NCBI RefSeq assembly: GCF_902728285.1
Contig: NW_027104472.1
Span: 935,681 to 999,680, forward strand
DNA from: Clytia hemisphaerica
Taxonomy: Eukaryota
Direction of reading: 5' to 3'
Length of the DNA stretch: 64,000 nucleotides
Positions 11,801 through 49,523 of this stretch are shown in pieces (position 1 is the stretch's first letter; each line of letters starts with the position of its first letter). Made by a program: the position numbers and the translations under genes. The notes under the pieces were generated by a model. It did no database searches, had not been told where the DNA came from, and saw only the letters and a program-made list of their open reading frames with translations.

Positions 11801-12874
11801 CTCTTGGGTACCTAATAGCTGCCCCCCCCCGCAAATTAATTTTTCGAAAATAATTTTCTACCCAGGACATTCTTATTCCAACCCCCCTGCTTATTGATCT
11901 TTGCGAAAATGTTTTTAATAGTTCCCTCTTTTGTCCTAATTCTGCTGTATTACATGTTTTTTTATAAGCATAATCGCACGATGGGTTATTTTTTCTTATT
12001 TGGCGCGCCCTCAAAGAGAGCAATTAATCGTTAATTGCATCCTGTAGAGAGCAATTAATCGTTAATCACACTCTCCAATGCGGCGCCAATGTTTACAAAA
12101 TTGATTTTATTGTTTTTTCTTACATTTTTTTGTATCGAACGTTTTAATTGCATTCGAAATTTATTTTGTGAGAAAGAAAATCAATAATCAACAATAAAAG
12201 AAAGACATAGAGAGAAGAGAAAAATGTAAAACTCTCAGTGTAATTTCTGTAATTTACTTTCCTAAATGGGAAAAAGTAGTGAAAGCCATTGTGCGATTAG
12301 CTCGTAATCACATAATAACTCGTACAATTCGAAAATTGCACTCGTGATTTTTTTGTTTCGAATTTTCCTCGTCCTTTCGGACTCGGAATATTAATAACAA
12401 AAAAATCACTCGTGCAATTATATTCGAATTGCACTCGTTATCATGTGATTACATATACTAACAACGTTTATAAGCATACCTCAAGACCTAAATTTGTCTA
12501 AAAAATAAGCATATTACTGAGCTTGCTTTTGAGGTGTGTAAGTGAAAATTTTTTTTTCTATTAGAAAACGTAATGACAAATCTTTGTGTCATTACTTATT
12601 ATCCTCATGTATAGCAATGGCAGATTTTGGAAAAATTGGAGACTCGAATTTTTCGGAAAAATAAGCATATGATAAACATACTAAGTCTAAAATATCTCTA
12701 AGCATAACTGAGCTTGTTTCCCAAAAAACATATGCTTATAAAAAAAACATGTAGCCTCCTTTTCAAAAGTTTTCCACCCAGGACATTTTTATTTCAACCC
12801 CGCCACTTATTAAGTTTTGAGATTTTTTCCAACCTCCCCCCCCCAAAACCCCCCAGCTATTAGGTACCCGAGGA
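11801..12874. mobile_element. About 1.07 kb non-autonomous TIR element in SPAG1 intron 14. TIR 'CTCTTGGGTACCTAATAGCTGCCCCCCC' with internal palindromes (caattaacgattaatc).
   Basis: Inverted ends lie at 11801-11830 and 12845-12874. The poly-C plus 'ttattaattttcgaaaa' motif is shared with the 49218 family. Confidence 0.65.
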
Positions 12875-13459
12875 GAGTATTCAACCGGATGAGCCTTATT
12901 CGCCTGTGTAGTCCCGGTTGGTAGGGGACCATTCAATAAAATTTCAAGCGTCTAACCAATGAGAAGTACCGCGGTTATTTTGAAAAATGTTTTCCTGTCT
13001 TCACTTTGATCCATGTCAACGGGGTCATACATTTGCTGTTTTGCACGCTCGATTTCAACACGTTACTTTTCGCTGGGCCTTCACGCCCAACGGGCTTCTT
13101 GTTTTCTTCTTCATTTTTGCCATCATTTTTCATGTTTAAGGTTATACAAAAATTCATTTTGAGGTTTGCCAAATACAATATAACTTCAATAGGAGACGCT
13201 GGCATGATAAAAGATGTATGTGTCTGACAACTAGGCTTTACAGAATTCATGTTTAGGGTTTGCTAAACCTAAGCCTATCAACCCTAGCGGCGCGGTCAGG
13301 TTTTTAGGAGACTAGTAACAAAAATACAAAAAAATATTTTCGACAAAGTCATGGAAACATATTTTTCCTTTTCATCTCAGGTTTCCTAAAATGTCGACTG
13401 CGAGCTATATGTTTGATAGATGTATTCGCATTCTAGCCTATTTATCCTATTTTCTTCAG

Positions 13460-13567
13460 GCCAAATACAGTGAAGCGATCCCCTTTTACACACAGTGTAT
13501 ATCACTGTTACCGTCAGAAGTACCTAGCTACACCAATCGTGCGTTGTGCTACTTGAAAGTCAAAGAG
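13460..13567 (+). CDS. SPAG1: SPAG1 exon 15 (AKYSEAIPFYTQCISLLPSEVPSYTNRALCYLKVKE)
   Basis: Matches human 'YKDALSKYSECLKINNKECAIYTNRALCYLKL'. cttcag acceptor and gtaaag donor. Confidence 0.85.
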
Positions 13568-14035
13568 GTAAAGTTTATACTGATGGGGGGGGGCTAGTGA
13601 TATGTTATTCTCTGCATTACAGTTTTAGAGTGTTTACTTCATGTTTATCGTTTCTACAGACCTGAACACTTTACAGGCGTCCCACATCCACCAAAGACCG
13701 AAAAACTTTCTTGCTATACCAGAAAAGATTTTCCCATAGTTAAGAGAGTTTTTTGGAAGGCCAATCTATGGACTTTTGCCGAAATTTTAGATACCTGGAT
13801 TTTTTTTCTGATTTAAGAAGACCTCCTGAATTATTTGCCACGTTTTCTGACGGTCCCTGCGGAGGCTCGCCGAAATTTCAATAATTCCCTGGAATGTCTA
13901 CAAAATATTATTAACCCCCTGGATTTTTTAAGTTTTTTATGGTACGTCTTGGACCGAAAATCCGACCTGCTTTTTTTCTAGAATAGCGAGCAGCCCATAC
14001 TACTCTTTTAACAATATTCTCTATTCTTTTTGTAG

Positions 14036-14131
14036 GCTAAACCCTTGAAAGCTGTAGAAGATTGTACTCAAGCATTGAAATTGCAACCAGGAAACATCAA
14101 AGCACTTTTCAGAAGGGCGCAAGGTTACAGG
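14036..14131 (+). CDS. SPAG1: SPAG1 exon 16 (AKPLKAVEDCTQALKLQPGNIKALFRRAQGYR)
   Basis: Matches human 'EAKQDCDQALQLADGNVKAFYRRALAHK'. Confidence 0.85.
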
Positions 14132-14392
14132 GTAATATCACTGACCTTTACATATCCCTGGACCAAGCTATATCCGCTTTATTTGATCGGAGTTTTTTTG
14201 GAATTGGTACCCGAGAAGAAGCCATTGCAATGTTAAAAATTAACGTCTAACGGCGCTATATCATCAAAAGTATTCTAGGAAAAGTAGATCTAGCGTTTTC
14301 GATGCATTTTCATTATTGAATAGTGCTGCAATTATGGTAACAATTTCAAAAAAGCTCCGATCAAAGATGGCGGATATAGCGTGATCTAGGGA

Positions 14393-14826
14393 TCATAGTG
14401 TCCTTCAGGGTCTCTTCCCCCCCATACCTAGAATGAAAATTTTCCATTCCCCCCCCCTCATTTTTCCCCACCCTGCCTCCAAAAATTTCTCTGTCCCCCC
14501 CTCAAGCATAAAAAGCTGTAATTTGATGAATGAATGAAAAGGTAGTTCTAATTCAAGAATAAATGGAAAGGATGGTTGTTTTTCAACCGTAATATCGCTG
14601 GTTGAAATTAATGAGAGAAAAACTACATATGCTATACACCAAATTGAGTGATAGTAAAACCAGATGTTTTTCAATTTTGAATTGATTTTGGTAAGTTTTT
14701 CATTTTCCATTCCCCCCCTCGTTTTCCCCCACCCTGGCTTCAAAAAAAATTCTTTCCCCTCTATACGTCCTTTTGACCTCAAAACCCATTTCCCCCCCTG
14801 AATCCAGGGGGGAGGACACTATGGGG
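14393..14826. mobile_element. MITE with TIR 'ATAGTGTCCT(T/C)C...CCCCCC' and an internal duplicated unit, in a SPAG1 intron
   Basis: Inverted ends at 14393 and 14826. The - strand ORF 14405-14782 is an artefact of this repeat. Confidence 0.6.
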
Positions 14827-15329
14827 ATATATAAAGGTCAGTGGGTAATACTACGAAATTTGACTAAAATGTTTAAGGGATTGTCAGACGATTTGAGATC
14901 TTTGTCCTGTAGTCTTCTCTGTATGATCCATCCGAGCCAGAACTAATTGTTTTATCACGCGAGCTTTTCTACATGATAAGGATAATAAGTATAATAATAT
15001 CCAGGCACTCTTCACAGCTTCTCGAAATCCACTTTTAAATATAATACCTTTAGTATACCGACGAATATCATAACATTTTAAAATACTTTAGAATTTCACT
15101 TCTAAGCGAAAATCATTCTTAATCTTCAAATTTTCAGTAAGCTGGATACAGGAACAAACATGTGAAATGGATGAATCCTTAACGGGCAAAGACAGTTGAT
15201 AGGACTGTAACGCCCTACTTCACACATACATTTTCAATAATAAGGATTGTGACGATGTTAGCTTTTAAATTAGTCGTTATAATATTTTATGGGTGAGACT
15301 TTCGAAGTTTGTCTTAATCTTTATTGAAG

Positions 15330-15443
15330 ATGTTGAAAAAATACAAGGAAGCGCTTGGTGACTTGGCGTCCATCTTGAAAGAAGAGCCGAAAAATAAAGC
15401 AGCTCAAAAAGACATGGATGAATGCAAAGACTTGTATAGAACG
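15330..15443 (+). CDS. SPAG1: SPAG1 exon 17 (MLKKYKEALGDLASILKEEPKNKAAQKDMDECKDLYRT)
   Basis: Final TPR helix pair. gaag acceptor and gtatat donor. The - strand ORF 15277-15516 in the track is spurious. Confidence 0.75.
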
Positions 15444-15485
15444 GTATATCTTCGTTCCAACCATTTTTTTCTAAATTAAACTTCC

Positions 15486-15690
15486 TACTGGGTGTCCCAG
15501 AAAAAAGTCCCCCCATTCTTTAACGGTTCATAGAACTCAAGAAATTTCACTTCAAAGAGGGGGACTTTTTCTAGCCTCGTTTTGGCGAAAACTCGCGACC
15601 ACGCCCTTAAAAATGAAAATTTTCAAAAAATGAAAAAAACACCCCCAGATATTCACCCAAGGAACAAAGTCTCTTGGAACACCCGGTAGG
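15486..15690. mobile_element. Small MITE-like inverted repeat (GGGTGTCCCAGAAAAAAGTCCCCC ... GGAACACCC)
   Basis: Approximate inverted termini. Intronic. Confidence 0.4.
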
Positions 15691-15854
15691 TCGCCCACAG
15701 ACTCAATGGTGTGGCTCCACCAAGAAATTCATCAGACTCATATTCTTAGCGTCATCGTGTAGTATAAATCGTTTTCTGAAGTGCCTTAAATATGACCACG
15801 GTTTCTGACTTTACCGAAGAAATTTGATGTTTTATTTAAATTTCGCCATTTTAG

Positions 15855-15947
15855 GAGTTGAGAGAAATGCAAAGCAAAGCACAACAATCGAGTTCAAGTA
15901 CCAAGAAATCTGGAAAGAAAATGAAGATTGAAGAAGTGACATCAGAC
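15855..15947 (+). CDS. SPAG1: SPAG1 exon 18 (ELREMQSKAQQSSSSTKKSGKKMKIEEVTSD)
   Basis: 'KKMKIEEVTSD' resembles human 'RKIEIQEVNEG'. ttttag acceptor and gtaagt donor. Confidence 0.75.
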
Positions 15948-17244
15948 GTAAGTCTTTTTTACTGAATTATTTGATTGGTTTCGAAAGAACCTTCATCTCT
16001 CTGATTCGAACAACTTCTTCCACTTCTGTTTGTCTTTCCAACGAGCACAAAATCGCTACTTAATTCAAATTCTATCAAAAGTTATCGAGGTTTGAAAAAA
16101 ACTGCCAGCTAATTTGAAATAGACTTTTGTACATTTCAAGGAATTTTTCAAAAATTAGTTTGGATAAGTTCGAGCAATTTGAGAAACCTAAAAATACTTA
16201 TTCAATTACTAGTTTAGGTATAAGTACTTTTCTCTTCTTGATTTTTGCATCAACCAAAGTGCTTTTATCTATACATAAAGCTATTAGTTTAAAAGAACTT
16301 CATCGGACAATATGTAATAGTGTTGTGTTAGCAAAGAACTTATTAAATACAAATTGAACTTGAACACACGTAAACTAGTAAATTTGATAAAGTGTAATGT
16401 CGTCTAATGTCCAATGTCTTTCAATCAGAAAAAGATTATAAACCAAGTCCCCATAACTCAAAATCATTGAGTCGAATAAATTTTCTACCCCCTCCCCTCC
16501 CATATTTGAATTTATCTCGAGATATTTTGGTTTAAATATTGAAAATTATCGATATTTTTTGCTGAGTCAGCAGTTTTTCAGCATATTTACCCACCTTAAA
16601 AATGAATTATCTCGAGATTTAGACATAGAAAGTCAACAAACCATACCATTTTTGGATACTACGAATTCAGGGCTATCCAGCCGTGGGAGTGATTTTTTCT
16701 GAAAATGCTTCTAGGAAAATGCTGACGTCATCCCAAAACGTCGATTTTTCGCCTTAAAAATGCCATTTCTCGGCACCAGGTGGTCGAAAGTTAAAAAATA
16801 ACCCCATTTTCTTTATCTACTTTTCAAGCTGAATCAGTTGGTAGCATCAGATATTTGATTTTCAGACTTCGAAAAACCGTTAGTAAGGGACCCTTGATAA
16901 GTTCTATCGATTAACTAAAAATCGATTCACTCGAAAACTGCAGGAGATTCGAAGGGCAAATTTTTTTTGTCAATTCTACACCCTATTAGGAGCATAATAT
17001 CAAAAATTTGCCCTGATCTAAGGGGTGCCCTACGAAGTGACACAATTCACTACCTCGGCCGCTGGTCTACAACGTTTATCTAAGGTTCACAACGTCCATA
17101 TAACGTTAGATGAACGTTCAAACAACGTTGTATGCCGGCTGGGTACTGTGATAAGCTTAAAGAGGCTCACCAAAAAAAACCTATTCAAATAAAACCGGTC
17201 TTTTGTTTTTCTTTTCATTGTACTACTTACTTATTTAACCATAG

Positions 17245-17367
17245 ACATTGGCGAGCAACAAACCGCCCACGAAACAATCAACGAAAAATAAAACATGTCC
17301 TCTAGCCAAAGGATCCACGACGCCAAGCTCCACCAGTAAATCTTCAACGACCAATAGTAATAAAAAG
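17245..17367 (+). CDS. SPAG1: SPAG1 exon 19, Ser/Thr-rich linker (TLASNKPPTKQSTKNK...TNSNKK)
   Basis: catag acceptor and gtttga donor, phase 0. Low-complexity linker. Confidence 0.6.
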
Positions 17368-17895
17368 GTTTGAATATCTTCATCTTAGTGGAAATTTTGA
17401 TCGGCTTCAAATTTTAGTCACTTCTTTTCTTCGAGCCCTATTCAAGTTTTGCTATCCATAAAAGAAATCGTATGACATAAAGCAAGGCGCAATTTTATTT
17501 CGTTTTCCAAATGACTTAAGGCTGAATCTCAAAATTGATACCTTGTTATAACATTTAAAATTTTGCAGTGGTGTTCACCTTTGAAATTAAGATTCGTTTA
17601 TTTAATTCATTAAGATTTCATTTTTCAATGTTTTCCAATGAGAAAATGTTAAAACAAAACAGAATTGAAAGATTTTCTAGGCACTTATTTTGAGATTGAA
17701 CTTATAGACCTATTGCTAATCATGATATGATTTTTACTTAAATAATGAGCGGGAAAAAAAATTATGTATTGACTCCAAAAATAGTGGCAAGGAAATCCAA
17801 CAAAGGTAGGTTGTGGTATTAGCTGGCTCATTGTGATGGGTGTAAATTATTTTCTAAAAATTCCGTCATTTTCTGGAAACTTTTTCATCCCGTAG

Positions 17896-18001
17896 ATAAA
17901 TGCAGTTGAGTTTATGCAAATGTGGAACGGGATCAAATCGGGGAAAAGTTCAGAATACGCAGAAATATTGAGACAAATTGAACCAACAAAATTACCCGAG
18001 T
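17896..18001 (+). CDS. SPAG1: SPAG1 exon 20, RPAP3_C domain start (INAVEFMQMWNGIKSGKSSEYAEILRQIEPTKLPE)
   Basis: Matches human 'NAYEFGQIINALSTRKDKEACAHLLAITAPKDLP'. Donor tgtaagt. Confidence 0.8.
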
Positions 18002-18248
18002 GTAAGTTTAATTTTAGATTTCTCTCATGATAAGTGATCAGACGATTTTGAGAATTTTATATCTTTTCACCATAGTCTTGCCATGTATTAAGAAATTCAG
18101 AATGCTTTGAAGTAGAATATTCATTCGTGAAGTTTCTTTCAAAAGAAAGAAACGTTACTGGTTCAAAGCTGGGAAAGATAAACCATTTCTTGTCTTTTAC
18201 AAGCTAGGTCTCTTTATTTTAACCTTTGTGCCCTTTCATTTTTTTTAG

Positions 18249-18323
18249 TGCTATCCAATAAACTAGATGGAAAAATCTTGGAGAATTTTGTATGGGCAAT
18301 AAGTGATCATTTTACTTCGAAAG
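18249..18323 (+). CDS. SPAG1: SPAG1 exon 21 (LLSNKLDGKILENFVWAISDHFTSK)
   Basis: Matches human 'MFLSNKLEGDTFLLLIQSLK'. ttttttag acceptor and gtaatt donor. Confidence 0.8.
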
Positions 18324-18669
18324 GTAATTTTTCATTACTCTTATGATGATGATGATGTTATACAAGAGCCCGCATGAGATTCTGGCTAGTCAGAGGAACT
18401 GTCTTTTTTATGGAATTCAGTAAATGCGATTTCGTAGTATATAATACAACAGGACGATAACTTCAAAGTCTATCAAATCAAACAATTGAAAAAAAGTAAA
18501 TTTGGGTAGGAAAATAAATCCTTGGAAATGAATATTACTTGACCTTTGAGTTTTATGGTCACTAGACTTTGACAGTTTTTTATCTGTCACCATCATAAAT
18601 AATATAATAAGGCGTTAAGAATCCATGAGCGATATGACCTTTTATAATTTCCCTTCGTTTTTGTTTTAG

Positions 18670-18881
18670 AAAATTACAAATACGGCATGACCTTACTAAA
18701 ATCTATGCATCGCGTCCAACGTTTCTCTACAATGCTTATGTTCCTTGGAACGCAAGAAAAGACTTTACTAAAATCATCAATGGACACTTTGGAAAGCCGT
18801 GCCAAACAAGACGGTTGTGAAAAGACAGTATTTAATGAGATCAGTCAGTTAAGGTCGCAATATCGATGTTCACCCTTGTAA
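18670..18881 (+). CDS. SPAG1: SPAG1 terminal exon with the stop codon (ENYKYGMTLLKSMHRVQRFSTMLMFLGTQEK...QLRSQYRCSPL*)
   Basis: RPAP3_C-like C-terminus; compare human '...KAERFKMMLTLISKGQKELIE...ALKRQYEL'. TAA stop at 18879-18881. Confidence 0.85.
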
Positions 18882-19291
18882 TGAAACTCAAGATATGTGT
18901 GTCTGGTGTTTTAGCTATTTTGCGGCTCCGGACTTTACAGGTTTTGCTATGGTTAGGCAACTTCCGCCATTATGGAATAGCAAGTGGCGTTTGTTTACGC
19001 AAACGTGATTGCGGAATTTACGTAAGTTTTAACTTAGTCAAACCTTGAAAAACCTCCATAATAAAAACTTAAATCAGTCCGGTAGGATAACAAGGCAAAT
19101 AGTGAAGATTTTATGCTGTTGAAAAATTGTATGATGGATGGAATGTGGTGTATTCGATAATAAGTAGTCTTCTAGCACATTGGATAGTGTAGAGAAAAAT
19201 TCACAGTACGCAATATTTAGTTTTCCATTTTCATTTCGAAAGAATAAGAACAGCGGGGTCTGAGCTATAGTTGTCGTAACAAACGTTTTGC

Positions 19292-19440
19292 CCACAGATC
19301 TGTAAAGCCCGAAGGGCTAGATTTGCGGCTTTTATCGAAAAGTGAAGCCTAGGTTTGGAAGGATTTTTGCTTCACTTTTTTTTGCTGGAGAAAGCTTAAA
19401 GTTGCCTATCTAGCCCTTCGGGCTTTACAGATATCTGTGG
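19292..19440. mobile_element. hAT-like MITE (149 bp). TIR 'CACAGATCTGTAAAGCCCGAAGGGCTAG'. 8-bp TSD GTTTTGCC.
   Basis: Inverted ends and identical 8-mer flanks at 19284-19291 and 19441-19448. Confidence 0.75.
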
Positions 19441-20595
19441 TTTTGCCCTGATGTCAATTTAAATACTATCCACGGTTGGTATGTATTTATTTCGGCTTTC
19501 TTGTGTGGAAACCATGTCGGTGTAATAAGAATTCTCTTTGAGAGTGTTTTTCCGCATGTTTGCAAAAAAGGTGCGGATACTTATTTTGAACAAACCTGAA
19601 GAGGTTCTGAATTTTTCTGGTTAGGTATTGATGATTCTCTGCATACTGTTTCATTTCGTTATATTTGGAGTTCAGTTACATATTGTTTTGCTATAAAAAA
19701 GCAAGGTTCTATAAAATAGGAGTGTGTTTGTAATATATTTTTATAATAATAAGAGAACTTGTTCTAAATTTTCTAATTTTGAGTGAATTTTATAATACCC
19801 TAGACATTTACATTTTGATGTTATTGTCAAATATTGTGATAAAACTTCGACTAGGTTTTTTAACTTTTCTATTTCTCTTATTTGTTCCACAACTCAGCGT
19901 TAGGTCAGTGAAGAATACCATCAAATTAGCCTATCATAGGGTAATTAGACTAATTGAAATAGTCTAATTTGCCGAAAATCGATAAAAATGTCGAATGCTG
20001 AGGGGATATCAATAGTTGCGTCTATTTTTCACTTTTGTTTCATTTCCTAAAGCCAAAGGAAACTTTTTCATCTAATTTGATATAACTTACATTGAACTTT
20101 GAGAACAGAAATATGAAAAAATGGTTTTTCATCGGCTAACTAACCGATTATAGGCTACTTTTTCCGATAAACTTTTCTTTACAATACAGAGCTTGTGAAA
20201 TAACAGCTCCCAGATGACGCACTATACCTTATCGGGCCTTTTTATGCCGGCCCTTTGTAGCGTTATTTTTTGAGGCGTAGAGCCATTATAGCCAGGGAAA
20301 GTGGACTTTTTAAGATTAAAACTTTACTTCCCAGTTGAGGATTTAAAGCCAATTACAAAATCTGTTTAATTGGATTGGTGAGTTATTGCATACTTCTTGG
20401 TTTGATGTGCTTCGTACTGAAGGATTCCGAAACTTTTCAATATTGCACTTGTCACCAGTTTTGATTTGTAGACTATAATGCTCCCCCACCCTTGGATATC
20501 CACAAATATGACCCTCTTTTTTGACTGACCCTCTGGAGTGAACCCTTTCCGTACCCTACCGTATAATATTTTATATACACCAGTTGCTTTTCATT

Positions 20596-20915: not shown

Positions 20916-21044
20916 TTTTACTTATTTTTCAGCTGTTTATAGAGAGGAGTCTCCTGAAAAAGTAAAAATATAACAAATAACTGAAAGAATAATGGAATGA
21001 AAATCCGCAACTGCAGTCAAGTCTTAATTCACTGGATAAACTAA

Positions 21045-21293
<249 letters not shown>

Positions 21294-21310
21294 TAATTTG
21301 TCTCTTTTAA

Positions 21311-21914: not shown

Positions 21915-22025
21915 AGCGTCCGTCCGAATAACTGATTTAAATGAACTTGTACCATTGATGGAAAAGAACATTGAAGCCAATCAGCATTTATTACAAGGAA
22001 ACGCCAAGGCTGAAAGTTTGAAATG
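21915..22025 (+). CDS. METTL21-like exon 2 (ASVRITDLNELVPLMEKNIEANQHLLQGNAKAESLK-W)
   Basis: Matches human METTL21A '[23 protein letters not shown]'. acttag acceptor and gtatgt donor. Confidence 0.8.
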
Positions 22026-22769
22026 GTATGTTTTATTTAATTTCTTTGCCTTGTCCAAATGCCTTGTACACGCTTTTTTTATAAGAACCAGTAAATCTTG
22101 ACTAAGGCTGGGCTGTTCTTAATTTTTTGAAATTTCCAGGCTTATATATTCTAAAGATCTTTTTAAAACGCTTAGTTTCTTTACTTATAAACTTAAAATG
22201 GGTTTAAAGTCAGTATTTTGACTAAGTAATTTCTGCAATCTGAGGCTTGCATCGTCCTGAATTTGTTCTTAGGTTTTGCCCAATTTTCAGCCTCGTGTTC
22301 TTAAAATGAAATAAAATGATGAAAAAAAATTAAATTATTCTTATAAAAACAAGCATGTATTGGTTAATTTCGGGAGCCTACATCCACTGTTAAGGAGGTC
22401 CCAAACCTTTTTGTGAGCTACCCTTTGTACTACTCAACTAAAAATCATGTAACACCAGAGGAATTTCAGGTGATTTTTGGGTTATCTCTCTGGAGTTTAT
22501 TATTGCGTGCCTGTTTTCGAACAATTCATGATATGCACCACTGGAGAGTCTTCCTACATTTTTCGAAATATTCAACCCAATATGTCACTTTTTTTATTGT
22601 TTAAGTGATGTATTGGGTTGAATATTTTGAAAATTCTCGGAAGACTCCAGTGGTGCATATCATGAATTAATTCCCTTGCAATGAACCTTCTACACGGGCT
22701 TAATCTGTAATCTTCTGAGATTCTTACAAAAAATACTTGTTGTACAAGAGACTCGTATTTTATTTGTAG

Positions 22770-22839
22770 GGGTGTGGATCTTGAGATGAAAATGAAAGCA
22801 GATATCATTTTGATTGCTGATTGTATCTATTATGATGAG
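22770..22839 (+). CDS. METTL21-like exon 3 (GVDLEMKMKADIILIADCIYYDE)
   Basis: Matches human 'FDLILGADIIYLEE'. tttgtag acceptor and gtataa donor. Confidence 0.8.
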
Positions 22840-23280
22840 GTATAATAAGATCATGTTCGCAGGTAACCGTTTGCCTTCGAAACAAAAGAAGCGAACGAAA
22901 CCGTAGCGTGTGAACGTGGTCTTAAGTCTCAATCGCACTTTTTCGAGCAAAGCTTCCACGCTATTGGTCAAAACAAAAATGAAGCAACTCCATTGGCGCG
23001 ATCTGACGTAACGGTTGAAAAAAGTTGAAATGTGTTCAACTTTTTTTTCAAGCGCGCGCTACATTTTTATGACGTAATCTTTTTTCCAAGCAAAAAGGAT
23101 TGAAGCCAAAAAGTGCGATCGCAGCGCGCGTAAGTGGAGACCGACCTTAACACTTCTTTGACACCACTTTCCACAACGTTGTCTATTGTGTAAATACAGT
23201 GTGTACATGGGTAATTTTTTCCAACGGTGTATAGCTTTATAATGATAGCATGAGTATATGCTATGAAATTGTTAAAAGGA

Positions 23281-23456: not shown

Positions 23457-23457
23457 T

Positions 23458-35300: not shown

Positions 35301-35984
35301 AAAGTGAGATCGGAAAATCGGATTTTTTTTTTGCCGTCTTATGGTGGAAAATTTTACCTATTTGAATGCTCAGCTTCGGCTGACCAATAAGAATTAAATA
35401 TTTGAAATCAGCTCATTTTATAGATTCACCAGTGTTGAAAACTATTTGAAAACGCACTTCTAAGAAAAGAAATTTGGGTGTCAAGTTTTCACCTAAATTA
35501 GTTATTCGGAAATATAGACTAAAATTGATTTTTTAATTTTAAGAGTTAAAATTGATGGAATCACTAAATTTCAGCTCCTAAAATTCTAGATTGTAAGGTA
35601 AAATAGATTTGTAAATATCAATCGTTTTCCAAAACTAAAAATTTCGTAACTGAGAAAAAATACCGTGCAAACATACCCTTATAAAGAGATTTCTATCCAC
35701 GCATCAGATTTTGAGAAACTATTTTTACAACCAATAATCACTTTTAACAAAGGGAATCTGAATAGAAGACGAAGAAGCCAAAGTGAGATATTATTCTATC
35801 TGATAACAGTTCACTGGTATAACACGCCACAGAGCCCTCCCGAATAGACGCCCCCACCCGCTTATTAATTTTCGAAAATCTTTCGGACACTCCCCCCCCC
35901 CCCCCGTTTATTAATTTTCCAGTTTTTGGACCTACCCCGGTGGGGTGGAGGTCCTATAAATTCACCTCTGTCCGTCCGTCCGTT

Positions 35985-36850
35985 CGTTACCAGCTTTTCT
36001 CGAGATTGAATCATAGGAATCATTTGATTTTTGGTACAAAGGTGCAAAACGGTAGTGGCCAAAATGTGATGGAGCCCGATTTTCGAAAAAAAAAATTTTG
36101 CGGCAAATTTGGGCCAAAAAACGGCTAAAAAACGGGTTTTTTGGACTTTGTGAAAAATTGGATCATTAATTTTTTCTGATTTTTTGCATGAAAGTAGGGT
36201 ACCATCATATGTAAAAGATGGCTCAAGCAGATTTTTGCAAGAAAATTTATTTGGCTTAAAAAACGCATGTTTATCTATAAGAATCACTATTAATAAGCAT
36301 ACATCAATGTTCTTAGTCAAATTACTCAATTTCTTTATGAGATAGATGTTTTTTTGCTCATGAGGGCTTACTTTTGAAGAATATGTGTGTTTAGACATGA
36401 AATTTTGGTTGCTTGGCGTGTTTTTATAGAAAAACTGGCCAAGTTCAATATTTTTTTATAAGCACATTATCAATTACTTAGGTATTAGCTTTTCTCGAGA
36501 TTGGCTCTTTCATTCTTTTTGCACAAAGATGCATAACTATAAACCCTCGAATGTGACTGAGCCCAATTTTCGAAAGAAAAAAAATGTTTTTGGGCAAATT
36601 TGGGCCAAAAAACGGCTAAAAAAAGTGTTTTTTGCATGAAAGTAGGTAAAAGATGGGTCAAGCAGATTTAAAAATTTTTCAGCTCAAAAAAACGCATCTT
36701 TATCTATAAGAATCACTATTAATAAGCATACATCAATGTTCTTAGCCAAATTACTCAATTTTTTGATGAGATAGATGTCTTTTTATGCTCTTGAATATGA
36801 AAGAATATTTCAAGAGCATGAAATTTTGGTTTCTAAGCGTTTTTTTATAA
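35985..36850. repeat. Tandem duplication of a unit of about 450 bp
   Basis: Two units of about 450 bp (35985-36430 and 36485-36850), aligned directly. The 177-aa - strand ORF 35865-36398 lies inside and is rejected. Confidence 0.7.
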
Positions 36851-37170
36851 GAAACAAACGACTAATTTTAATAAATCGTCACTATTTGTGTTCTGAATGA
36901 TTGTTTAACGTTCATGCTCACGTAGATATCAATTATAATATATGTGTTAAATGCATAACCCGGTAGGTCCATAAAAGTATCACTTGTTTGTTCAGGCTTA
37001 ATCTATTTCAAACGTTCCAATTTCGTTTTCATAGAATTAGGTAAAAGGAAAGTTCTAAATATTTTCAGCTCCCCCCCCCCCCGTTATTATATTTTGCAAA
37101 AACTTTAGACCCCCCCTTTTATTCAGACCTCCCCCCTATTATTCCGGACCTCAGAGTAATTCACAATCAA

Positions 37171-37531
37171 AATAGGCAGGGCAAAAACCCGGGGGGGGTA
37201 CTACCCTTGTCGACCGACTGGGGTGCTCCGCTGAGGTTCGAAAAATGGACACTACGTGGGACTCGAAATTTGCGAAAAAAGTGACCCTGAATGGGACTGA
37301 AATCCCAAAATGTTCTCAAATTTTCTACTTTTCTCCCAAATTTTCCAAAAATAGGCACCCTACGAGGGACTGATTTTTCTATTTTGGTTTTTCTGCGACC
37401 CTACCTGGGACTCGTGGAGGTTAAAAAAGGTACCCTGACCAGCGGAGCATCCCCGTAACCCATCTTGCCCTAGTACCCCCCCCCCGGGGGGGGCAAAAAG
37501 TGGGCTATCTAAACTAGAGCTCGATCTCACT
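37171..37531. mobile_element. Solo TIR fragment of the 23458-family, interrupted by a nested MITE (37186-37500; TIR CCGGGGGGGGTACTA..., about 6-7 bp TSD 'GCAAAAA')
   Basis: 'aataggcagggcaaaaa' | insert | 'gcaaaaagtgggctatctaaactagagctc'. The insert ends are inverted poly-G/poly-C 'gggggggtactaccc' and 'ccctagtaccccccc'. Confidence 0.5.
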
Positions 37532-38285: not shown

Positions 38286-38397
38286 ATTCCCAGCTGGCAC
38301 ACAACGTTGTTTCAACGTTCATCTAAAGTTACATGGACGTTGTGAACGTTAGATAAACGTCGAAAAAACGTTGTGTGCCAGCTGGGTTAAAAAAATC
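38286..38397. mobile_element. Foldback MITE, same family as 28750-28860
   Basis: Same inverted termini. Confidence 0.7.
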
Positions 38398-39964
38398 AAC
38401 TCACTCGAAAAAGTCAAGGACAATTGACCAATGTTGTAAAGCATGCGTGGTTGATTCGTTCAGATTTGAGACCTCGACCGGTCTTGAATATTTGTATACA
38501 TCAACAAAATGTGATTTTTCGGCACCGTAATGTTTGCGTCGGGACGGTTTCCATTCTCTAAAAGAATTTAAGAAAATTCTAATGACTGGAGGTATTCTTT
38601 ACTTTTTCATTTGAGTGAATGAGAATTATATAATAACTAACATATTGAAACATTCCTCACACATCGAATTTTACTCCTACAATTTGCTTACACATCATTT
38701 TTAAAGAAAGTACAACTTTCTTCCATTCAGATTTTAAGAAACTCGCTGTTTGCCGCTCCTAAATAAGATCCCTGCAACCACTGCAGTGCAGTCTCCTATG
38801 TCGAAGGAGCGTCCACACTAAGCTCAATGTCACAATGGTTATCATGTAGGAATGCAAGATACACCTGGTTCGATAATGAAGAACGCATTGGTCCAGGGCG
38901 GAAACGCAGCAGGCAAAAGGCTTGTTACAAGCAAACGAGTTTCCTAATTTCTAATCTTTAAAGGTTCCAGTAAAGTGTCAAGAAAATCTTGGTTCGTTAA
39001 AGTTTATACAAACCCAACACTTACCTTTCTTGAATTCGACCCTGATTGTTGTAATATGACATAATCTTTCTTTATAGTTTGTATTCCACACCGACTAAGA
39101 AATGTAAAGCCATTGAGAAAATGTATTATCTTGAAAGATTTTAGCAAAAAGGAAAGAATCTCTTTGCCAAGATGACATGTTACACTTGTCTCCCGAATAG
39201 ATGCCCCCCCCCGCTAATTGTTGAGAGAAAAAAATCCATCCCCCACTCTTATTAAGATCCCCCCTCCCCCGCTAATTAAATTCGAATAATTCAATATGTT
39301 ACTACAGTGTAGATAGACCTTAAACTTGTTAAAATTTTCCTTTTTGTTAGTATTGGTTCTTATTTTACGTGTTCATTTTCTTTTTTGTTGTTGAAATTGA
39401 TATCGGTTAAAAAAATTCTGTCTTCAAATAACCCCCCCTCTTATTCCATCCCCCCGTTTATTAGAATTTAGAAAATTTTCCTACCCCCCTCTTATTCCAT
39501 CCCCAGAGACAAGAGTAAAATCGAAATCTTCAAAGCTGGTAATTTCGATGTGAGATTCGACATGGCCTAAAATTGACATTCTCAAACTGGTAATTAGTAA
39601 GGCATAATAGTTTTTGCCACATGATCATAGAAACACCTCTGTGTTTGACCCCAAACCCACTGGAAGATTTGGCTATTAAAATTTCGTCCCCGGTGGGAAA
39701 AACACCCTACAATTTTAGCCCCACTGGTAAATTAACCTTGATTTCAACCCCATTTGAAATTCAATGGAAAATCGCACTCCAGAACCATCTTTACTGGATT
39801 TTTTGGCCTGTGAGCAATAAAATTTCTGTCTCATTTGGGATCTCGATAGAAATTGTATCCCCACTGTGGGAAGAAGTTCTACCGGGGCTGTGAGACAGGG
39901 GTGTATAGAAGGAATCTTCACGCCAAATATCATATCATATAATAAATAAGTAAAATGCTCTCAT

Positions 39965-41365: not shown

Positions 41366-43029
41366 TGTTTACAATTGGGCCTTCCACTTTCACACGTACA
41401 CTGAAGTTGAGCCCAGTGCTTTTGTAACACATTCCCTAAAATTACAGACATGCGAAATGTGTTCAATGGCTAAATGAAAACAAAAATATCACGTGACCAT
41501 ATTGTATAGAACGGACAACGTCATTTCTGAGAATCTATTTTCTGAGAAAACTCAGCGGGAGAGTGTTTTGTTTACCTTGTTTTGTTGTTTTCAAACGATT
41601 TTTAAACACACTCTCCTTCATTGATGCTATAAAGTGACCACGGTTTTAAAGTGGTAGATTCTCTTTGTACCAAAACACACTTGACCCGATGTACTTCAAT
41701 ATTTGTAGTGCCTCCCTTACAAGAATCGTTTGACCGAGGCCAAGTAATATTATCCGGGGGGGTTCTTAGGCAAGAATAGACACTAGGTAGGTGTGTGCCT
41801 TAAGGGCTGGATTTTTCCTCCCTCTTTTCAAGTCTCTCTAGGGTTACTCTTAGGTCCCAAATAAATGGAGGGGGGTTGGAAAATCTTAAAAAATAAGGGG
41901 CCTTCTCTTTGACAGTTGAAAATAATCTTGAAAATTAATAAACTGGGGGGGGGTCCTTATAAGGTCCGCGGGGGTTGGAAAATTTTCGAAAAATTAACAA
42001 GCGGGGGGGGGCGTTTATTTGGAACCTAAGAATACCAAAACAACCAAAACAAAGAACTGTCTCTCTAAAGGTCGTTTTTTTTCACAAACTCGAGTCAAAG
42101 AAGAGTGAAAAGTCAAGAAAGTAAGAAAAGTTTTCGAAAGTATTGGAGATTTTTTTTTTCTTTTCAAATTGAAGAAATTTTTGTGAAGTTCTCTTTCCAA
42201 GGTCACTTTTTAGCAATGACTCAGGGTAAGGGTTTGGAGATCCAGCACACTCATATCCCTCAACCCTAGTACCTCCCCACATATACTGTGCTTAGAGGCT
42301 GTCCACATAGTACGTACGCACTGAGGGGGGGAGGGAGTCTTCTCAAAGGCGTGTGCTTGCGTACAGGGAGAGAGGATGGGTGAAAGGAAAATGTACGTAT
42401 GCAGAGAAAAAATTTTCAAAATTTTTTATGCTTCTCATTGATTGGATTAATCGGATTCAAATTTCCTCGTTTTAGCAAAATTTTAGGAAATTAACTGAAA
42501 AGAAATGCTTTCTTTTTCTTTTATCCTTTAGAGGACAAGCATAAGTACATTATGTGAAAATTTCAAGTCTCTAGCATTTTCCTGTCCGAAATTATCTTGA
42601 TTCCGATTTAGAGGGATCTCAACCGGGATGAGGACGAGATAGAGGGATCCCTCCTATTGTGGTAAATAGAAACAAAATAATATAATACGAAAATGGCTAA
42701 AAAAAACAAGAAAGTTTCTAAACAGGTTTTTGCCACCGAGCGAGCACAGCGAGCATAGGTGGCTTCATAGCTTCACGAGGTTGTGCAGATGGTTTAAATT
42801 TTCGCCGTCTTTTTTTTTTAATTTCGCCTAGCGAAAGTATTACGATAGTCTTTCGCGGCGGTGCGGAAAAAAAATTAGAAAACGAAAGTACTTGATACGG
42901 TGGACGAACTCACTAAATTTAATTTACAAATTACACGCTCGTATAACCACGGACAATTTTCGCGGGTTTTCTTTGGATTACGTCATATATTTTTGTGTCT
43001 TTAGCTTCACAGTTTTGATTTTTTCTTTA

Positions 43030-44075
43030 TTTTCTTATAAGCATATACTTTATAAGATTCAAATCAATAACTCTTGATAGACGGTGATATACCTTTCGAG
43101 AATTAGTTCTTTCAAAGTAAACAAGAGATGGCGCACAATATGAGCATATTCATTTTTCTTATAAGCATATACTTTATAAGAATCAAATCAATAAATCTTG
43201 ATAGACGGTGATATACCTTTCGAGAATTAGTTCTTTCAAAGTAAACAAGGGATGGCGCACAATATGAGCATATTTATTTTTCTTATAAGCATATACTTTA
43301 TAAGAATCAAATCAATAACTCTTGATAGACGGTGACATACTTTTCGGTAATTAGTTCTTACAAAGTTAACAAGGGATGGCGCACAATATGAGCATATTTA
43401 TTTTTCTTATAAGCGTGTACTTTATAAGAATCAAATCAATAGCTCTTGATAGACGGTGATATACCTTACGGTAATTAGTTCTCACATAGTAAACAGGAGA
43501 TGGCGCACAATATGAGCATATTTATTTTTCTTATAAGCATATACTTTATAAGAATCAAATCAATAACTCTTGATATACGGGAATATACCTTTCAGTAATT
43601 AGTTTTTACAAAGTAAACAAGGGACGGCGCACAATATGAGCATGATTATTTTTCTTATAAGCATATACTTTATAAGAATCAAATCAATAACTCTTGATAG
43701 ACGGTCATGTACCTTTCGGTATTTAGTTCTTACAAAGCAAACAAGGAATGGCGCACAATATGAGCATATTTATTTTTCTTATAAGCATATACTTTATAAG
43801 AATCAAATCAATAACTCTTGATAGATGGTGACATACTTTTGGGCAATTAGTTCTGACAAAGTAAACGAGGGATGGTGCACAATATAAGCATATTTATTTT
43901 TCTTATAAGCATATACTTTATAAGAATCAAATCAATAACTCTTGATATACGGGAATATACCTTTCGGTGATTAGTTCTTACAAAGTAAACAAAAGATGGT
44001 GCACAATATGAGCATATTTATTTTTCTTATAAGCATATACTTTATAAGAATCAACTCAATAACTCTTGCTAGAGG
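43030..44075. repeat. Tandem array of a 124-bp unit, about 8.4 copies ('cttataagcatatactttataagaatcaaatcaataactcttgatagacggtgatatacc...')
   Basis: Unit starts at 43034, 43158 and 43282, then every 124 bp. Confidence 0.85.
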
Positions 44076-44396
44076 GTGAAGGCTCGATGTAAAGTAGATT
44101 TCAGATTAGCTTCAATCTCTACTTCTTGTTTTTCCCATGCAATTCAAAGTCTAGGCGAAATTTTCGACTTCAAGTCGTCTTGTTTTTTTTGTCGTACACA
44201 GCTAGCCCGTATTTATAGTATTCCGTATATTGGGGGATTATGGCGTGGGTGTTTGGCTGCGGGCGTACTACGGCCAATATTCTAAAGGTGGACTCACTCA
44301 CAAAGATAAAAAACAGCGCTTTTCTTAATAATTAAAATACGCTAGTGTAAGAAGTGTAACCAAGCCTTTGTAAACATTAATGGCTGCTTGAAACGG

Positions 44397-44943
44397 AAAA
44401 TGTTATATCGGATGGCCAAAAGTCACCTCACCTTCTTTTCTTTTCTTTCCTATCTCTTATCCTATTTTTCTCTTTTCTGACTGTCTGAGTTTCTGAGACT
44501 TAGTTTCTCATTTCTGACTGAGTTTTCATACCTGTCAATCATTTGTCCATCAATTTCGACCAGTCTAATTTTTGCACCGAGTGGGATTCGAACCACCACC
44601 AAAGAAAGACCTTCAGTTTCGGAAGCCAGCGCTCTATCCGTTGAGCCATCGCCGCACAGCAGAACCACGCAATTCATAACATATTATACCGAACTGGCAA
44701 AAGACGGGGGTAATATTATTATAATATGGGTAACAGTACCCCTTTTTTAAACCTGACTGAAATTCGAGCCGTTACTAGCAACCCTGCGGGGCCCACGGCG
44801 CCGAGTATGCACCCGGCACAGTGACAAGCCGTTACTAGCAACCCTGACCCTACCTAACCCCTGGAAAAGTGACTATCAGCGATCCGTGGATAAAAAAATA
44901 AAATTAAAAAATGAAGGTGACTATTGGCCATCCGATATAAGAG
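44397..44943. mobile_element. TIR-bounded element ('TTATATCGGATGGCCAAAAGTCACCT') that contains a degenerate tRNA-like (SINE-head-like) segment at 44575-44660 on the - strand
   Basis: Inverted ends at 44397-44425 and 44915-44943. The internal segment in reverse complement has a D-arm-like 'GCTCAACGGATAGAGC' and a T-loop 'GGTTCGAATCC', but the acceptor stem does not pair. Confidence 0.45.
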
Positions 44944-45345
44944 CATCCGCTTGAAACTAGTTTTCACCGCCTTTTGAAACTTGCTGCTGTTATTATAAAT
45001 TTTTATCATGTTTTCTGGTCTTTTGTAGAGTATTTAAAGAGGTTTATTATTCGTTTACTACTAAGTATTTTATGTTTGTGTAGTTAGTGAATGCACCAAT
45101 AAATTGATAATGCTCAGTAAATAGTACAAAAAGAGTTAATTTTCCACAACAACTCATAGCCCTCTTCTTCACCAAAACTACAAACAGCACAGCCACAGGT
45201 ATGATCTTTTACTTTTATCTGATGAAGTTTGATTGGTTTTCAACCAATGTGTTTGGTTTAAGAAAAAGTTCCAGCTTTTCCTCCCCGATGCCAGCCCAGG
45301 CGATGTCAACCGAACCCTATCAAACCGATTGTCGTATATCATATC

Positions 45346-45694
45346 AGGACCCTGCCGGCGCACCGGACTGTCCAGTGTATTTGTCCGGTGGCAAAAAGTA
45401 TCCTTTCACTACACCGGACGCAATAAGTCTGGTGTAAGTCCGGTGTTGCATACAGGGAATTTTGGACGCCGGACGACATTTATGAAACAAAAAATTAAGA
45501 AACACCGGACGTACCGGACTGGTCATGTCCGGTGTTTTGATTATCCGGTGGGAAAAAATATCCTTCTCCGACACCGGACATCCGACTTCCTTAAGTCCGC
45601 TGTAGAAATTGTCCGGTGGTAAAAGAAATTCTCATTTTACACCGGACTTTTGCATGTCCGGTGTTCGTTAAGTCCGGTGCGTCGGCAGGGTCCT
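45346..45694. mobile_element. hAT-like MITE: TIR 'AGGACCCTGCCGGCGCACCGGAC', 8-bp TSD ATCATATC, internal ACACCGGAC/GTCCGGTG mini-repeats
   Basis: Identical 8-mers at 45338-45345 and 45695-45702. Inverted 23-bp ends. Confidence 0.75.
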
Positions 45695-45989
45695 ATCATA
45701 TCGAACCATCAAATTTCATCGAACGAAATCAAACGGTTAGGTGTTTGATTACCGAACCTGATCGAAGAGTAATCGAACTTTACCAGAAAATCTTCAGTAT
45801 TGATTAAAGTTATATCGCAGTTTGATCAAGTTCAATCAATGTTTTTGTAGCTCAAATGGTTCCAGTTATTGACCTTACCGCCTGACCGCAATTTCTTGGT
45901 TCGATGACTGTTCGATTTGGTTCGGTAATCAAACAGTTCAATTGACATCGCCCGGCCGATGGGTTGATAGATATTTGCCTGCTCTATAA

Positions 45990-48125
45990 ACACATGACTT
46001 AAAAGGTTATGAACAGGTTGAATGTCCGGCTGAATCATCAAAAGGTGGTGTCAAGCTTTATTTTTCTGATAACATCAAAAACTACACTGAAAGGGATGAC
46101 CTGAAAATTTACAAAAAAAGTCAGCTCGAATCAAAATTCATTGAAGTCACAAATTCTAGTAATAAAAAATATATAGTTGGCTGCATTTATAAACATCCAA
46201 AGATGGACATCAATGAATTTAATCTTCTCTACTCTAAAATACTTGACAAAGTAAATTCTGAAAAAAAAGAAATTTTCATTATGGGTGATTTTAACATTGA
46301 TCTACTGAAAATTGAGACTAAACCTCAACATGAAGAATTTTTACAGTGTAACCTTTCCAATGGTCTAAAACCTTACATCATAAGACCTACAAGAATCACT
46401 CCTACTTCCAAAACATTGATCGACAACATCTATTCTAACAACATAGATAATCAAAATATTTCTGGAAATCTTATTTGGGCTATTTCTGATCATCTTCCAC
46501 AATTTCTCCTGGTCAAAGCTCCAAAACAAACAAAGACCTATCCCTATTATTCTTGGCGAGACTTGAGAAATTTTAATGAAAATAATTTTTTGCTTGAGTT
46601 TCAGTACACAAACTGGGACACCTTATTTCATGGAAAATCTATCAATGAAAAATTCAAAATTCTAATTAAAAAAACAAATGAAATTATTGACAGACATGCA
46701 CCCCTCAAAAGATCTAAAATAAATAAAAAAACAAACAAACCATGGATAACAAAGGGCATCTCTAAATCAATTAAACAAAAAAACAAACTCTACAGATATT
46801 TCATGCGTGCCAAAAACCAGAAGATAAAAGCACAAAAACACTTAATTTTCAAAAGATACCGTAATGTTCTGGTAAAGGTCATGAGGAAAAGCAAATCAAA
46901 TTATTACAAAAACTATTTTCAACAAAATGAAAAAAACCTTCGTAAAACCTGGATTGCCATAAACGAGATCTCACATGGAAGACAGAACAAAGAACAACAA
47001 ATAAATGTCATTCAAAGAGAAGACAAATTGTTGGAAAAGCCTGAAGAAATAGCAGAAGAATTCAATTCTTATTACAGTTCGATCGCCACAAAAACAAAAT
47101 CAAGAATACCAAACACAGAAAAGCACTTCTCTAGTTACCTTGACGATCCAGTGTTAGACTCCATTTACTTATACGAAACAAACAAAGAGGAAGTAGACAA
47201 ATTAATTCACAAACTAAAAGATAGCAAAGGCACAGGACCAAACAGTATTCCTACAAAATTTTTAAAAATCTTATCTCCTGCCATAAGCCAGATCATTTCC
47301 AATTTAATCAACATTTCTATTCTGAATGGAATATATCCTGACTGCCTCAAAATTGCTTCTATAAAACCACTACACAAAAAGGATTCCAAACTACTAACTG
47401 GAAACTACAGGCCCATCTCCCTCCTTTCTAACCTGAACAAAATTTTTGAAAAAATAATTCATTGCCGACTTTATCGTTTTCTTGAAAGTAAAAAAAGCCT
47501 CTACAAACATCAGTTCGGTTTCAGAAAAAAACACAGCACAAATCATGCAATCATAGCATTAACCGAAGAAATCAGAGACGCTCTTGACAACGGAGAATTT
47601 GCCATAGGTGTCTTCATTGATCTACAGAAGGCATTTGATACAGTAGAACATTCTATACTTCTTGAAAAACTTGCAAATCATGGCATAAGAGGAACTGCAA
47701 ACCGTCTGTTGACCTCCTATCTAAACAATAGAAAACACTGCACTAAAATTAATCAAAAATCATCAACATATAAAGAATGTAAACATGGAGTACCTCAAGG
47801 ATCGGTACTTGGTCCTCTACTTTTTTTAGTTTATATAAGTGATCTCCATAAAAGCATTACCAATTCCAAAACTTTTCATTTTGCAGATGATACTAGCATT
47901 GTTTGTAGGGGAGCCTCCCTAAAAGACTTAAAACTCCTTGTACAAAATGATCTCTTCGGACTAGTCCATTGGCTTAGAGCAAATAAAATAAGCCTCAATG
48001 CAGGAAAAACTGAGATAATTATTTTCAGATCAAGATACAAAAAAATTGATTGTAAGCTTGTCTTCAAAATGAGTGGTCAGAAATTATTCATCAAAAAGAA
48101 AGTAAAATATAAATTCCCTATATAA
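45990..48125 (+). mobile_element. 5'-truncated, degenerate non-LTR retrotransposon (CR1/L2-like LINE): ORF2 fragment with the C-terminal half of the APE endonuclease (GDFNIDLL, SDHLP) and the reverse transcriptase (FADDTSIV)
   Basis: The frame is open from 45990. The EEP motifs 'GGVKLYFSD...IVGCIYKHP' are followed by RT motifs (PISLLSNLNKIFEKII, FRKKHSTNHAI, QGSVLGPLLF, FADDT). The ORF ends prematurely at 48125, so this is probably a dead copy. Confidence 0.85.
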
Positions 48126-49217
48126 AAGTTGACATCAAAGATGTCTCTAAAGACACCTTTAGAGATCATGTAAAATCATACATAATTGACAAGATGGCCT
48201 AAACATTATTTTCTTTTCCCTAGACCGAGCACTGACTTCTCTGAAATCTTTTCACTTCGAACAATTCATAGTAAGTATTGGTAAGTATCTATTGTTATTT
48301 ATTTCAGTCGTTTCAAAGAAGTATATGTAATGGGAACTCGACAAACCTTGACACTCTCATTTAAAAACAATTAAGTACAGAATGGATCACCTCCCCCTCC
48401 CCCCTTAGTTCTTTTAGGAACTACACTGCCTTTTCTTTTGTTAATAAAACATTCCATATTAGCCAGCAAGGTGGTCATGAAACTTTAGCTAACGCTCCTC
48501 TCATTGGCCTGCCTTCAAACGTGAAGCTATAGTTTCTTATATTTTTATCCTGTAAATATTATACAGCAAAGTAGTTTTTATCATGTATATAACTTGAGCT
48601 ATACGTTGAGAAATATATTTACCTTACCTTACCTTAAGCTTTTTAGTGTGGGCGTCTGCTATTAAGCCGTCGGAAATGGGCAACAAGGTAATAAATGAAG
48701 CTTCAATATAGAACCTCACCGATCTTGATACCTTTTGCTAATCAGGATTTTCATTTTGAATCATTAAAAACTCCAGTGTACCGTTGTTTTGTATAAGATT
48801 CCCATTTCCGCACTAAGATTCTTGATACTTTTCTGGAATCTTTTCCCTATATATATTTTACGGGATAACCAGGAAGAAATTGGGTAGGGTTCGTTTAATG
48901 GGATGCAGTTTAAAGTAGTTGTAAAGGAGTCATTGTTGTGATTTGTACTTATGTAGATTTATTGCATATAGAAAAACCGCTTAGCCCATCATTTTTATTG
49001 GATGGATGTTTATATTGTCATTTTTAAAACCAACCCATCATTTTTATTTATTTAGATATATTCTTTACATTGTTAAAAAATAAAATCTTCATATTATTTC
49101 TTCATGTAACCAAACCTATGCTTATATTTTATATATTATAATATATTTTATTTATTATTATTAGGTGGCACTTAGTGTAAGCTATATCTAGTTTTAATAA
49201 AGCTGAATAAAGAAGTA

Positions 49218-49523
49218 CTCTTAGGTGCCAAATAAACGGTCCCCCCCGCTTGTTAATTTTTCGAAAATTTTCCAACCCCCCCGGACCTTATTAGGACCCC
49301 CCCGTTTATTAATTTTAAAGAATATTTTCAGTTGGCTAAAAGAAGTCCCCTTATTTTGCTCCAAAAAGCCTGATTTTAGCCTATATTTACCTTATTTTTG
49401 GGTTTTCATAAGTACAATTTCCAACCCCCCCGGCAATTAGGTCCCCCCCGTTTATTGAAATTTCAAAAAATTTCGAACCCCCCCGTTTATTCGAACCCCC
49501 CCGTTTATTTGGCACCTAAGAGT
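49218..49523. mobile_element. Poly-C family MITE. Perfect TIR 'ACTCTTAGGTGCCAAATAAACGG' with internal 'CCCCCCCGTTTATTAATTTTCGAAAA' units. Related fragments at 35820-35940, 37060-37145, 39180-39260, 39415-39505 and 41760-42045.
   Basis: The 13+ bp terminal inverted repeat is exact. The motif recurs at least 7 times in the window. Confidence 0.7.

Follow-up and report, generated by a model that had tools for sequence, protein, structure and literature searches.

Five short elements in a 64,000-nt stretch of the Clytia hemisphaerica genome (assembly GCF_902728285.1, contig NW_027104472.1, positions 935,681 to 999,680; hereafter the window) very probably form a family of TA-duplicating MITEs (miniature inverted-repeat transposable elements), non-coding and about 190-340 bp long. 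A filled and an empty allele of one further locus, the 3' untranslated region (3'UTR) of the SLC25A3 mRNA, demonstrate both the TA target-site duplication (TSD) and presence/absence polymorphism in wild Clytia. The pair bears out the MITE family put forward in the original prediction, together with the shortness, the lack of coding sequence, the terminal inverted repeats (TIRs), and the dispersed copies. The one-strand polarity of the homopolymer-bearing units is the family's only unusual trait.

A metagenome scan for two adjacent copies of the C-run unit that recurs within the elements recovered a 1789-bp contig, L011, in which a mitochondrial phosphate-carrier mRNA carries a full copy of the family in its 3'UTR, transcribed as the C-rich strand. 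The protein of this mRNA is the Clytia hemisphaerica SLC25A3 (XP_066930434.1, 340/343 identical), and the identical protein is encoded by eight environmental metatranscriptome contigs. Among the SLC25A3 contigs, the element is full in four and truncated inside its first run in two more; the copy measures 295 nt, of which 293 nt lie between the TA dinucleotides, and sits 184 nt past the stop codon. The filled contigs read ...TAGAATG-TA-CTCTTAGG...CCTAAGAG-TA-AGTAGTTG..., with the element enclosed by the two TA dinucleotides. Another contig, L021 (Ga0314693_10066265), is the precise empty site, ...AAGAATG-TA-AGTAGTTG... (GAATG-TA-AGTAG). With the element removed from the filled allele, the two are identical at 1476/1483 positions, and the 7 differences all fall in the UTR near the site, so that L021 represents a separate haplotype. 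Collapse of k-mers during assembly cannot explain the empty site, since the junctions share just GTA, and no GT-AG intron reproduces the observed L021 junction. Horizontal transfer from a scyphozoan-like host, considered for the best named match (Rhopilema, 83%), is ruled out by the identity of the mRNA as Clytia SLC25A3. One assembly of the SLC25A3 mRNA, L018, is chimeric with another MITE copy.

The original prediction listed eight separate modules in the window. BLAST of these regions against the window, inverted-repeat detection, and alignments resolve the sites into both ends of elements A, B, and D and the whole of elements E and F, that is, five elements, which match each other by BLAST and have core lengths of 190-337 bp. 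The reference copy for the anatomy is F (49216..49524, + strand), a complete element of 309 bp including the flanking TA at each end, with seven C7 runs, all on the + strand. Its TIR is perfect, as predicted: the 24-nt arms at 49216-49239 and 49501-49524 are 100% complementary. The left arm (49216..49239, + strand) consists of TA and CTCTTAGGTGCCAAATAAACGG and is followed by T, C7, and GCTTGTTAATTTTTCGAAAA, and the inner part of the right arm (49501..49524, - strand), C7 GTTTATT, recurs inside the element as its repeated unit. At 49472..49509 (+ strand), Tandem Repeats Finder reports the terminal unit TTCGAACCCCCCCGTTTA as a duplication of 18 bp in 2.1 copies with 100% matches; the SLC25A3 copy (L011/L017) lacks this duplication and shows an alignment gap there. 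The sole open reading frame (ORF) within F is a 70-aa stop-to-stop frame. As single-stranded DNA, F is predicted to fold into a TIR-stem hairpin (z = -5.3), as for any MITE.

Element E (41845..42034, - strand) lies in the opposite orientation and is a 190-bp deletion derivative of the F type, with four C-runs on the minus strand and a TIR of 21 nt at 90%. Identity with F amounts to 88% for E and to 86% for the SLC25A3 3'UTR copy; the three align end to end, and their likeness stops at the TA on both sides. In this E/F subfamily, the TIR boundary is TA followed by CTCTTAGGTNCCAAATAAACG, and the TIRs span 21-24 nt. The TIR 22-mer TACTCTTAGGTNCCAAATAAAC occurs 4 times, where 0.01 occurrences are expected. 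The family TIR can be written as TACTCTTAGGTNCCAAATAAACG, of which A, B, and D carry variants. Element D (39181..39517, + strand) is a 337-bp copy of a subfamily, TA-CACTTGTCTC...GAGACAAGAG-TA, with a TIR of about 12 nt as judged by eye and seven C-runs of at least 5 nt on the + strand. Among its internal units, C7 TCTTATTCCAT matches the terminal unit of D exactly. Element A (11799..12879, + strand) has a core of about 291 bp, TA-CTCTTGGGTACCTAATAGCTG...CAGCTATTAGGTACCCGAGGAGAG-TA, and a TIR of 19 nt that is 95% complementary. It is split by a nested, unrelated insertion of 790 bp at 11957..12746 (no strand assigned), a different transposon outside the family with the TIR TTTTTTTATAAGCATA and ACATG on both flanks. 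Element B (about 35820..37158, + strand) carries the longest runs (C14, C12) in a core of about 290 bp and has the right end CCGGACCTCAGAG-TA; its left terminus is degenerate, which makes the exact start uncertain. About 1 kb of nested sequence at 35923-36975 interrupts it and holds an internal duplication of ~450 bp at 69% identity. The flanks of the copies are unique (five in 64 kb, plus L011/L017 and a solo end in the contig L015), and TA adjoins all of the at least 11 ends inspected in this family and in a related one. No empty sites for A to F were found within the window.

The C and G runs expected from the original prediction are present at 8/8 of its sites, far above chance. The window has ~35% GC, and CCCCCCC has 77 overlapping matches in it, compared with 1.88 expected; none of 100 shuffles reaches 77. 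The string C6NNTTATT occurs 11 times vs 0.01 expected. In a listing of all C/G runs of at least 6 nt in the window, the five elements hold 23/48. The family therefore supplies roughly half of all long G:C homopolymers here, which explains the compositional oddity of this AT-rich stretch. Some details of the prediction need revision. Run length ranges from 5 to 14 in the window rather than 7 to 12, and the quoted GTTTATTAATTTTCGAAAA is not the iterated unit: it is not repeated, and with up to 2 mismatches allowed, TTATTAATTTTCGAAAA matches once, no more often than by chance. The longer version, GCTTGTTAATTTTTCGAAAA with its variants, appears once per element and adjoins the left TIR in A, B, E, and F. 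What is iterated is a shorter core, C(5-14) followed by G[C/T]TTATT. Rfam covariance models give 0 matches at the gathering threshold over the whole window.

The alignments show a left-end and a right-end architecture common to the elements. The left end reads TA, CTCTTAGGTNCCAAATAAAC G(1-2), C(7-12), GCTTGTTAATTTTTCGAAAATTTTCCAA, and then C-run units; the right end reads (A)AATTTTCCAA C(n) GTTTATT ... C(n) GTTTATT TGGNACCTAAGAG, TA. The iterated unit is the inner part of the right TIR, repeated with the outermost nucleotides left out. Across six copies, the top strand carries 32 C-runs of at least 5 nt and 0 G-runs of that length. With all 32 runs on one strand, the element is polar, and the C-runs stand outside its inverted symmetry. 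The left ends of F, E, L011, and L015 compare as AATAAAC-G(n)C(m)-GTTTATTAA, where (n,m) is (2,7) in F, (1,9) in E, (1,12) in L011, and (27,1) in L015. The recurrence of this arrangement in four copies leads us to read the left end as two motifs placed head to head and sharing a G:C tract.

The original prediction allowed for a motif confined to the window, but copies turned up in contigs outside it, not only at the SLC25A3 locus. A scan of prokaryotic genome contigs found L015 (CBDFNO010000014.1, 727 kb), labeled as a metagenome-assembled genome (MAG), 'MAG: Flavobacteriaceae bacterium', which contains a solo MITE end, TACTCTTCGGTGCCTAATAAAC-G27-CGTTTATTAATTTTT. The stretch that we read has ~36% GC, sparse ORFs, and fragments resembling the endonuclease of a long interspersed nuclear element (LINE) and a Mutator-like transposase (PF20700, E = 1e-13). 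By these features, it is plainly eukaryotic, not bacterial, and L015 is likely a mis-binned host contig in a public MAG. The Mutator-like fragment, 3.4 kb from the solo end, was considered as a partner and judged unrelated, the MITE being without an 8-10 bp TSD. A related family with the TIR TACTCTGAAGTGCCTATTAAAC(G)10-12 is found in five marine metatranscriptome contigs (L002, L007, L008, L010, L012; Ga0307384, Ga0307400); it has C7GTTTATT and C7GTTTAATAGGCAC as internal units and TA next to its ends. One copy of this TACTCTGAAGTGCCTATTAAAC family lies beside a carbonic-anhydrase-like mRNA (510 aa) among marine eukaryote transcripts. ENA contigs carrying relatives of the LINE in the window (L013, L014, L025, L026) hold no family members, and a scan of viral contigs for the family gave 0 matches. 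Literature searches by sequence string and keyword found no published description of the family.

A 2-bp TA duplication is an established hallmark of the IS630/Tc1/mariner/pogo group of cut-and-paste elements, and the TIR lengths of 21-24 nt fit this group. PMC4344528 also describes the TA duplication as such a hallmark. On the strength of the TA duplication, we read the elements as Tc1/mariner-type MITEs mobilized in trans and infer a transposase of the Tc1/mariner/pogo type. The element inserts at TA and duplicates it; in the mechanism that we propose, a DDE/D transposase of this type would be supplied in trans. The units would multiply through tandem duplication, and their C-runs would lengthen and shorten through slippage. 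In this superfamily, the inner TIR is the part bound by the paired-like helix-turn-helix domains of the transposase. The units, being copies of the inner right TIR, would offer extra sites for the N-terminal DNA-binding domain. That they serve as transposase-binding sites is a tentative proposal, to which we give somewhat less than an even chance.

The family resembles Stowaway of plants, MADE1/Hsmar1 of human, and Emigrant/Lemi1 of Arabidopsis in its shortness, lack of coding sequence, TIRs, TA duplication, dispersed copies, and insertion polymorphism. Its TIR is presumably unrelated to those of Stowaway and MADE1. Tc1/mariner-derived MITEs have TIRs of about 20-30 nt; unlike them, the Clytia family has an internal motif with a long G:C homopolymer that is repeated on one strand only. 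A published precedent for binding of the units comes from Emigrant, a MITE whose subterminal repeated motifs are bound by the pogo-like Lemi1 proteins (PMC1636448). The family also resembles inverted repeat/direct repeat (IR/DR) elements of the Sleeping Beauty type in having more than one motif copy per end, the inner copies being without the terminal cleavage nucleotides. However, the inner repeats of IR/DR elements are mirror-symmetrical between left and right, whereas no such mirror-image arrangement is found here and all units keep one orientation across the element. In the same host genome, the pogo element Passer has TA TSDs, 27-bp TIRs, and 18 copies, 8 of them intact, and is reported as probably active (PMC9976928). 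It shares with the MITE family the host, the TA TSDs, and the shortness of the TIRs.

A further likeness concerns Tc3 of C. elegans. The transposase recognition sequence in its inverted terminal repeat, TGTGGGAAAGTTCTATAGGACCCCCCCG, is preceded by CAG and has its C7 tract at nt 24-30, counted from the end, which makes it a second precedent. The Clytia elements likewise have a TA target, and the left-end C7 of F is also located at nt 24-30 after the TA. The differences are considerable. Tc3 has 462-bp symmetrical TIRs with a second internal transposase-binding site, and its termini begin with CAGTG..., whereas the termini here begin with CTCTT or CACTT and the TIRs are 21-24 nt. In addition, the two ends of the Clytia family are non-equivalent: read inward, the left end presents a C-run and the right end a G-run. 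As regards Tc3-like membership, the ends have nothing in common beyond the G:C7 tract, placed at a similar distance inward. We take the resemblance as a lead, not as evidence of membership.

Several observations weigh against mobilization by a Tc1/mariner-type transposase that binds the units. The window ORFs, the fetched loci, and the viral contigs yielded neither an autonomous element nor a transposase with these TIRs, and for this reason it is the TA duplication by itself that carries the superfamily assignment. Pfam identifies no transposase families among the 139 ORFs that reach 70 aa in the window, only RVT_1, TPR, Methyltransf_16, 7tm_1, and PHD. Passer is the only Tc1/mariner-type element that we found published for Clytia, and it was rejected as the mobilizer because its TIR, TACCGTAATTTCTCTAATTTAATACG, differs from that of the MITE. 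Classical IR/DR binding sites should invert between the element halves, and the units do not. The internal units co-vary with their own terminal unit or TIR clearly only in D and B, and tandem duplication with slippage alone could yield functionless units. As for the empty site, metatranscriptome contigs can be chimeric, as L018 is.

A purely mutational origin of the units is a serious rival, and it is quite possible that the same MITE carries C-run units without any role in transposition, as by-products of slippage and tandem duplication that are tolerated in a non-coding element, with the polarity coming from local copying of the right-end unit. The perfect 18-bp tandem duplication in F, missing from another copy, is what such a process would leave, and tandem duplication naturally gives direct, not inverted, repeats. 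Run lengths vary from copy to copy (5-14, with 27 in L015) and from assembly to assembly of a single locus, and E transposed or persists with just four runs and a large internal deletion. However, the TIR, the G:C run, and AATAAAC are kept together in a clearly different family and in the TIR-diverged A, B, and D, which suggests constraint, and the left half, remote from the right end, also contains units. The units might instead matter chiefly to the host, as G-quadruplex (G4) or i-motif structures, as poly-C protein-binding sites, or as hypermutable tracts that spread into introns and UTRs and modulate expression. We consider this very unlikely. The strict strand polarity and the variable run length would suit such a role, and the C-rich strand of one copy is indeed transcribed within the SLC25A3 3'UTR, but this insertion is polymorphic rather than fixed, unit number and spacing differ between copies, and there is no evidence of selection. 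The G4 potential raised in the original prediction survives only in a reduced form. No canonical G4 motif (four tracts of at least three G, loops of 1-7 nt) lies inside any of the five elements (0/5). Motifs with loops up to 12 nt occur in 3/5, two of them in F and the rest in A and B, and are absent from D and E. A G4-aware fold predicts three-tetrad quadruplexes only in F and B, from neighboring G7 pairs, and elsewhere two-tetrad structures within single long runs. Hence, the predicted G4 potential is weak and not conserved across the family.

Mobilization might also be due to a transposase outside the Tc1/mariner/pogo group, from another TA-targeting or an undescribed lineage. The termini, CTCTT..., are unlike those of Tc1 (CAGT), Tc3 (CAGTG), and the Clytia Passer (CCGTA), and the window ORFs include no matching transposase. 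Set against this, the 2-bp TA duplication is the hallmark of IS630/Tc1/mariner/pogo elements and TIRs of 21-24 nt fit them, which makes another lineage unlikely. That the homopolymer runs are sequencing or assembly artefacts, a doubt already voiced in the original prediction, has a negligible probability. The doubt is justified as far as exact lengths go. At the SLC25A3 locus, the left-end run is read as G1C12, G2C9, G1C11, or G2C10 depending on the assembly, other runs as 7 vs 9 or as 7 vs 12-15, and two assemblies end within a run. The runs themselves, however, recur at the same positions in the window, in at least 7 independent metatranscriptome assemblies, and in a long-read-style contig of another project. 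The C-runs are real, and their lengths are unstable or poorly determined. Two SLC25A3 assemblies, L022 and L024, end in junk G-runs at the first homopolymer, so the elements break short-read assembly, and such G:C tracts make assembly and variant calling difficult.

For Clytia hemisphaerica, a laboratory model jellyfish, the Tc1/mariner-type reading adds a well-delimited MITE family with demonstrated TA duplication and wild polymorphism. The presence/absence polymorphism makes the family usable as a marker and hints at a Tc1/mariner-type transposase that is now or was recently active in the Clytia genome. The strand polarity and the G:C tract in the presumed binding site, as in Tc3, are testable points on how transposases read the ends of their elements. 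A bolder version would take the one-strand units and the head-to-head G(n)C(m) junction, present only at the left, as a directional transposase-binding architecture with functionally different ends, and the hypervariable poly-C tracts as tuning expression. We regard this version as speculative and improbable. If it were true, such a directional architecture would be one not described for Tc1/mariner-type elements, and poly-C tracts would be scattered into transcribed regions such as the SLC25A3 3'UTR.

Two other elements of the window also carry C- or G-runs. At 14391-14816, a different MITE-like element has the TIR CATAGTGTCCT and is flanked by the 5-bp direct repeat GGGAT, a TSD length like that of Transib. 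It has its own same-strand C7-C9 runs, which are preceded by TTTTCCATT. A module of GAAAATTTTCCA plus a C-run, common to this element and the TA family, was considered and rejected, as the best local similarity equals the shuffle median. Directly right of B, at 37176-37500, lies a short element with the termini C3-5 G8-10 TACTA ... TAGTA C10 G5-8, and an imperfect TIR of about 45 nt. It is bordered on either side by GGGCAAAAA, possibly a TSD of 9 bp, and gives a second example of a transposon that ends in a C(n)G(m) junction.

The window also contains tandem arrays and genes. A tandem array at 43026-44079 has a 124-bp unit in 8.5 copies at 90% identity; the motif ATAAGCATA occurs both in this satellite and in the nested insertions of A and B. 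A second array, at 53105-53539, has periods of 54 bp and 228 bp. At 45990-48125, the ORF of a 5'-truncated non-LTR retrotransposon comprises an endonuclease remnant and RVT_1; its full-length relatives carry PHD domains. The closest relative of this LINE ORF is a 94% identical fragment in the ENA metagenome ERZ27264644, with 92% identity at the nucleotide level. Searches for exact-protein records of the window LINE, METTL21D, and Clytia SLC25A3 found none. Three exons of a METTL21D-like lysine methyltransferase lie at 21045-21293, about 21985-22095, and 22765-22842; they match an NCBI protein of Clytia hemisphaerica at 100% identity and 100% query coverage. A gene for a rhodopsin-family G protein-coupled receptor, with 7tm_1 matches, spans 59572-62629, and TPR/RPAP3-like exons are present elsewhere in the window.

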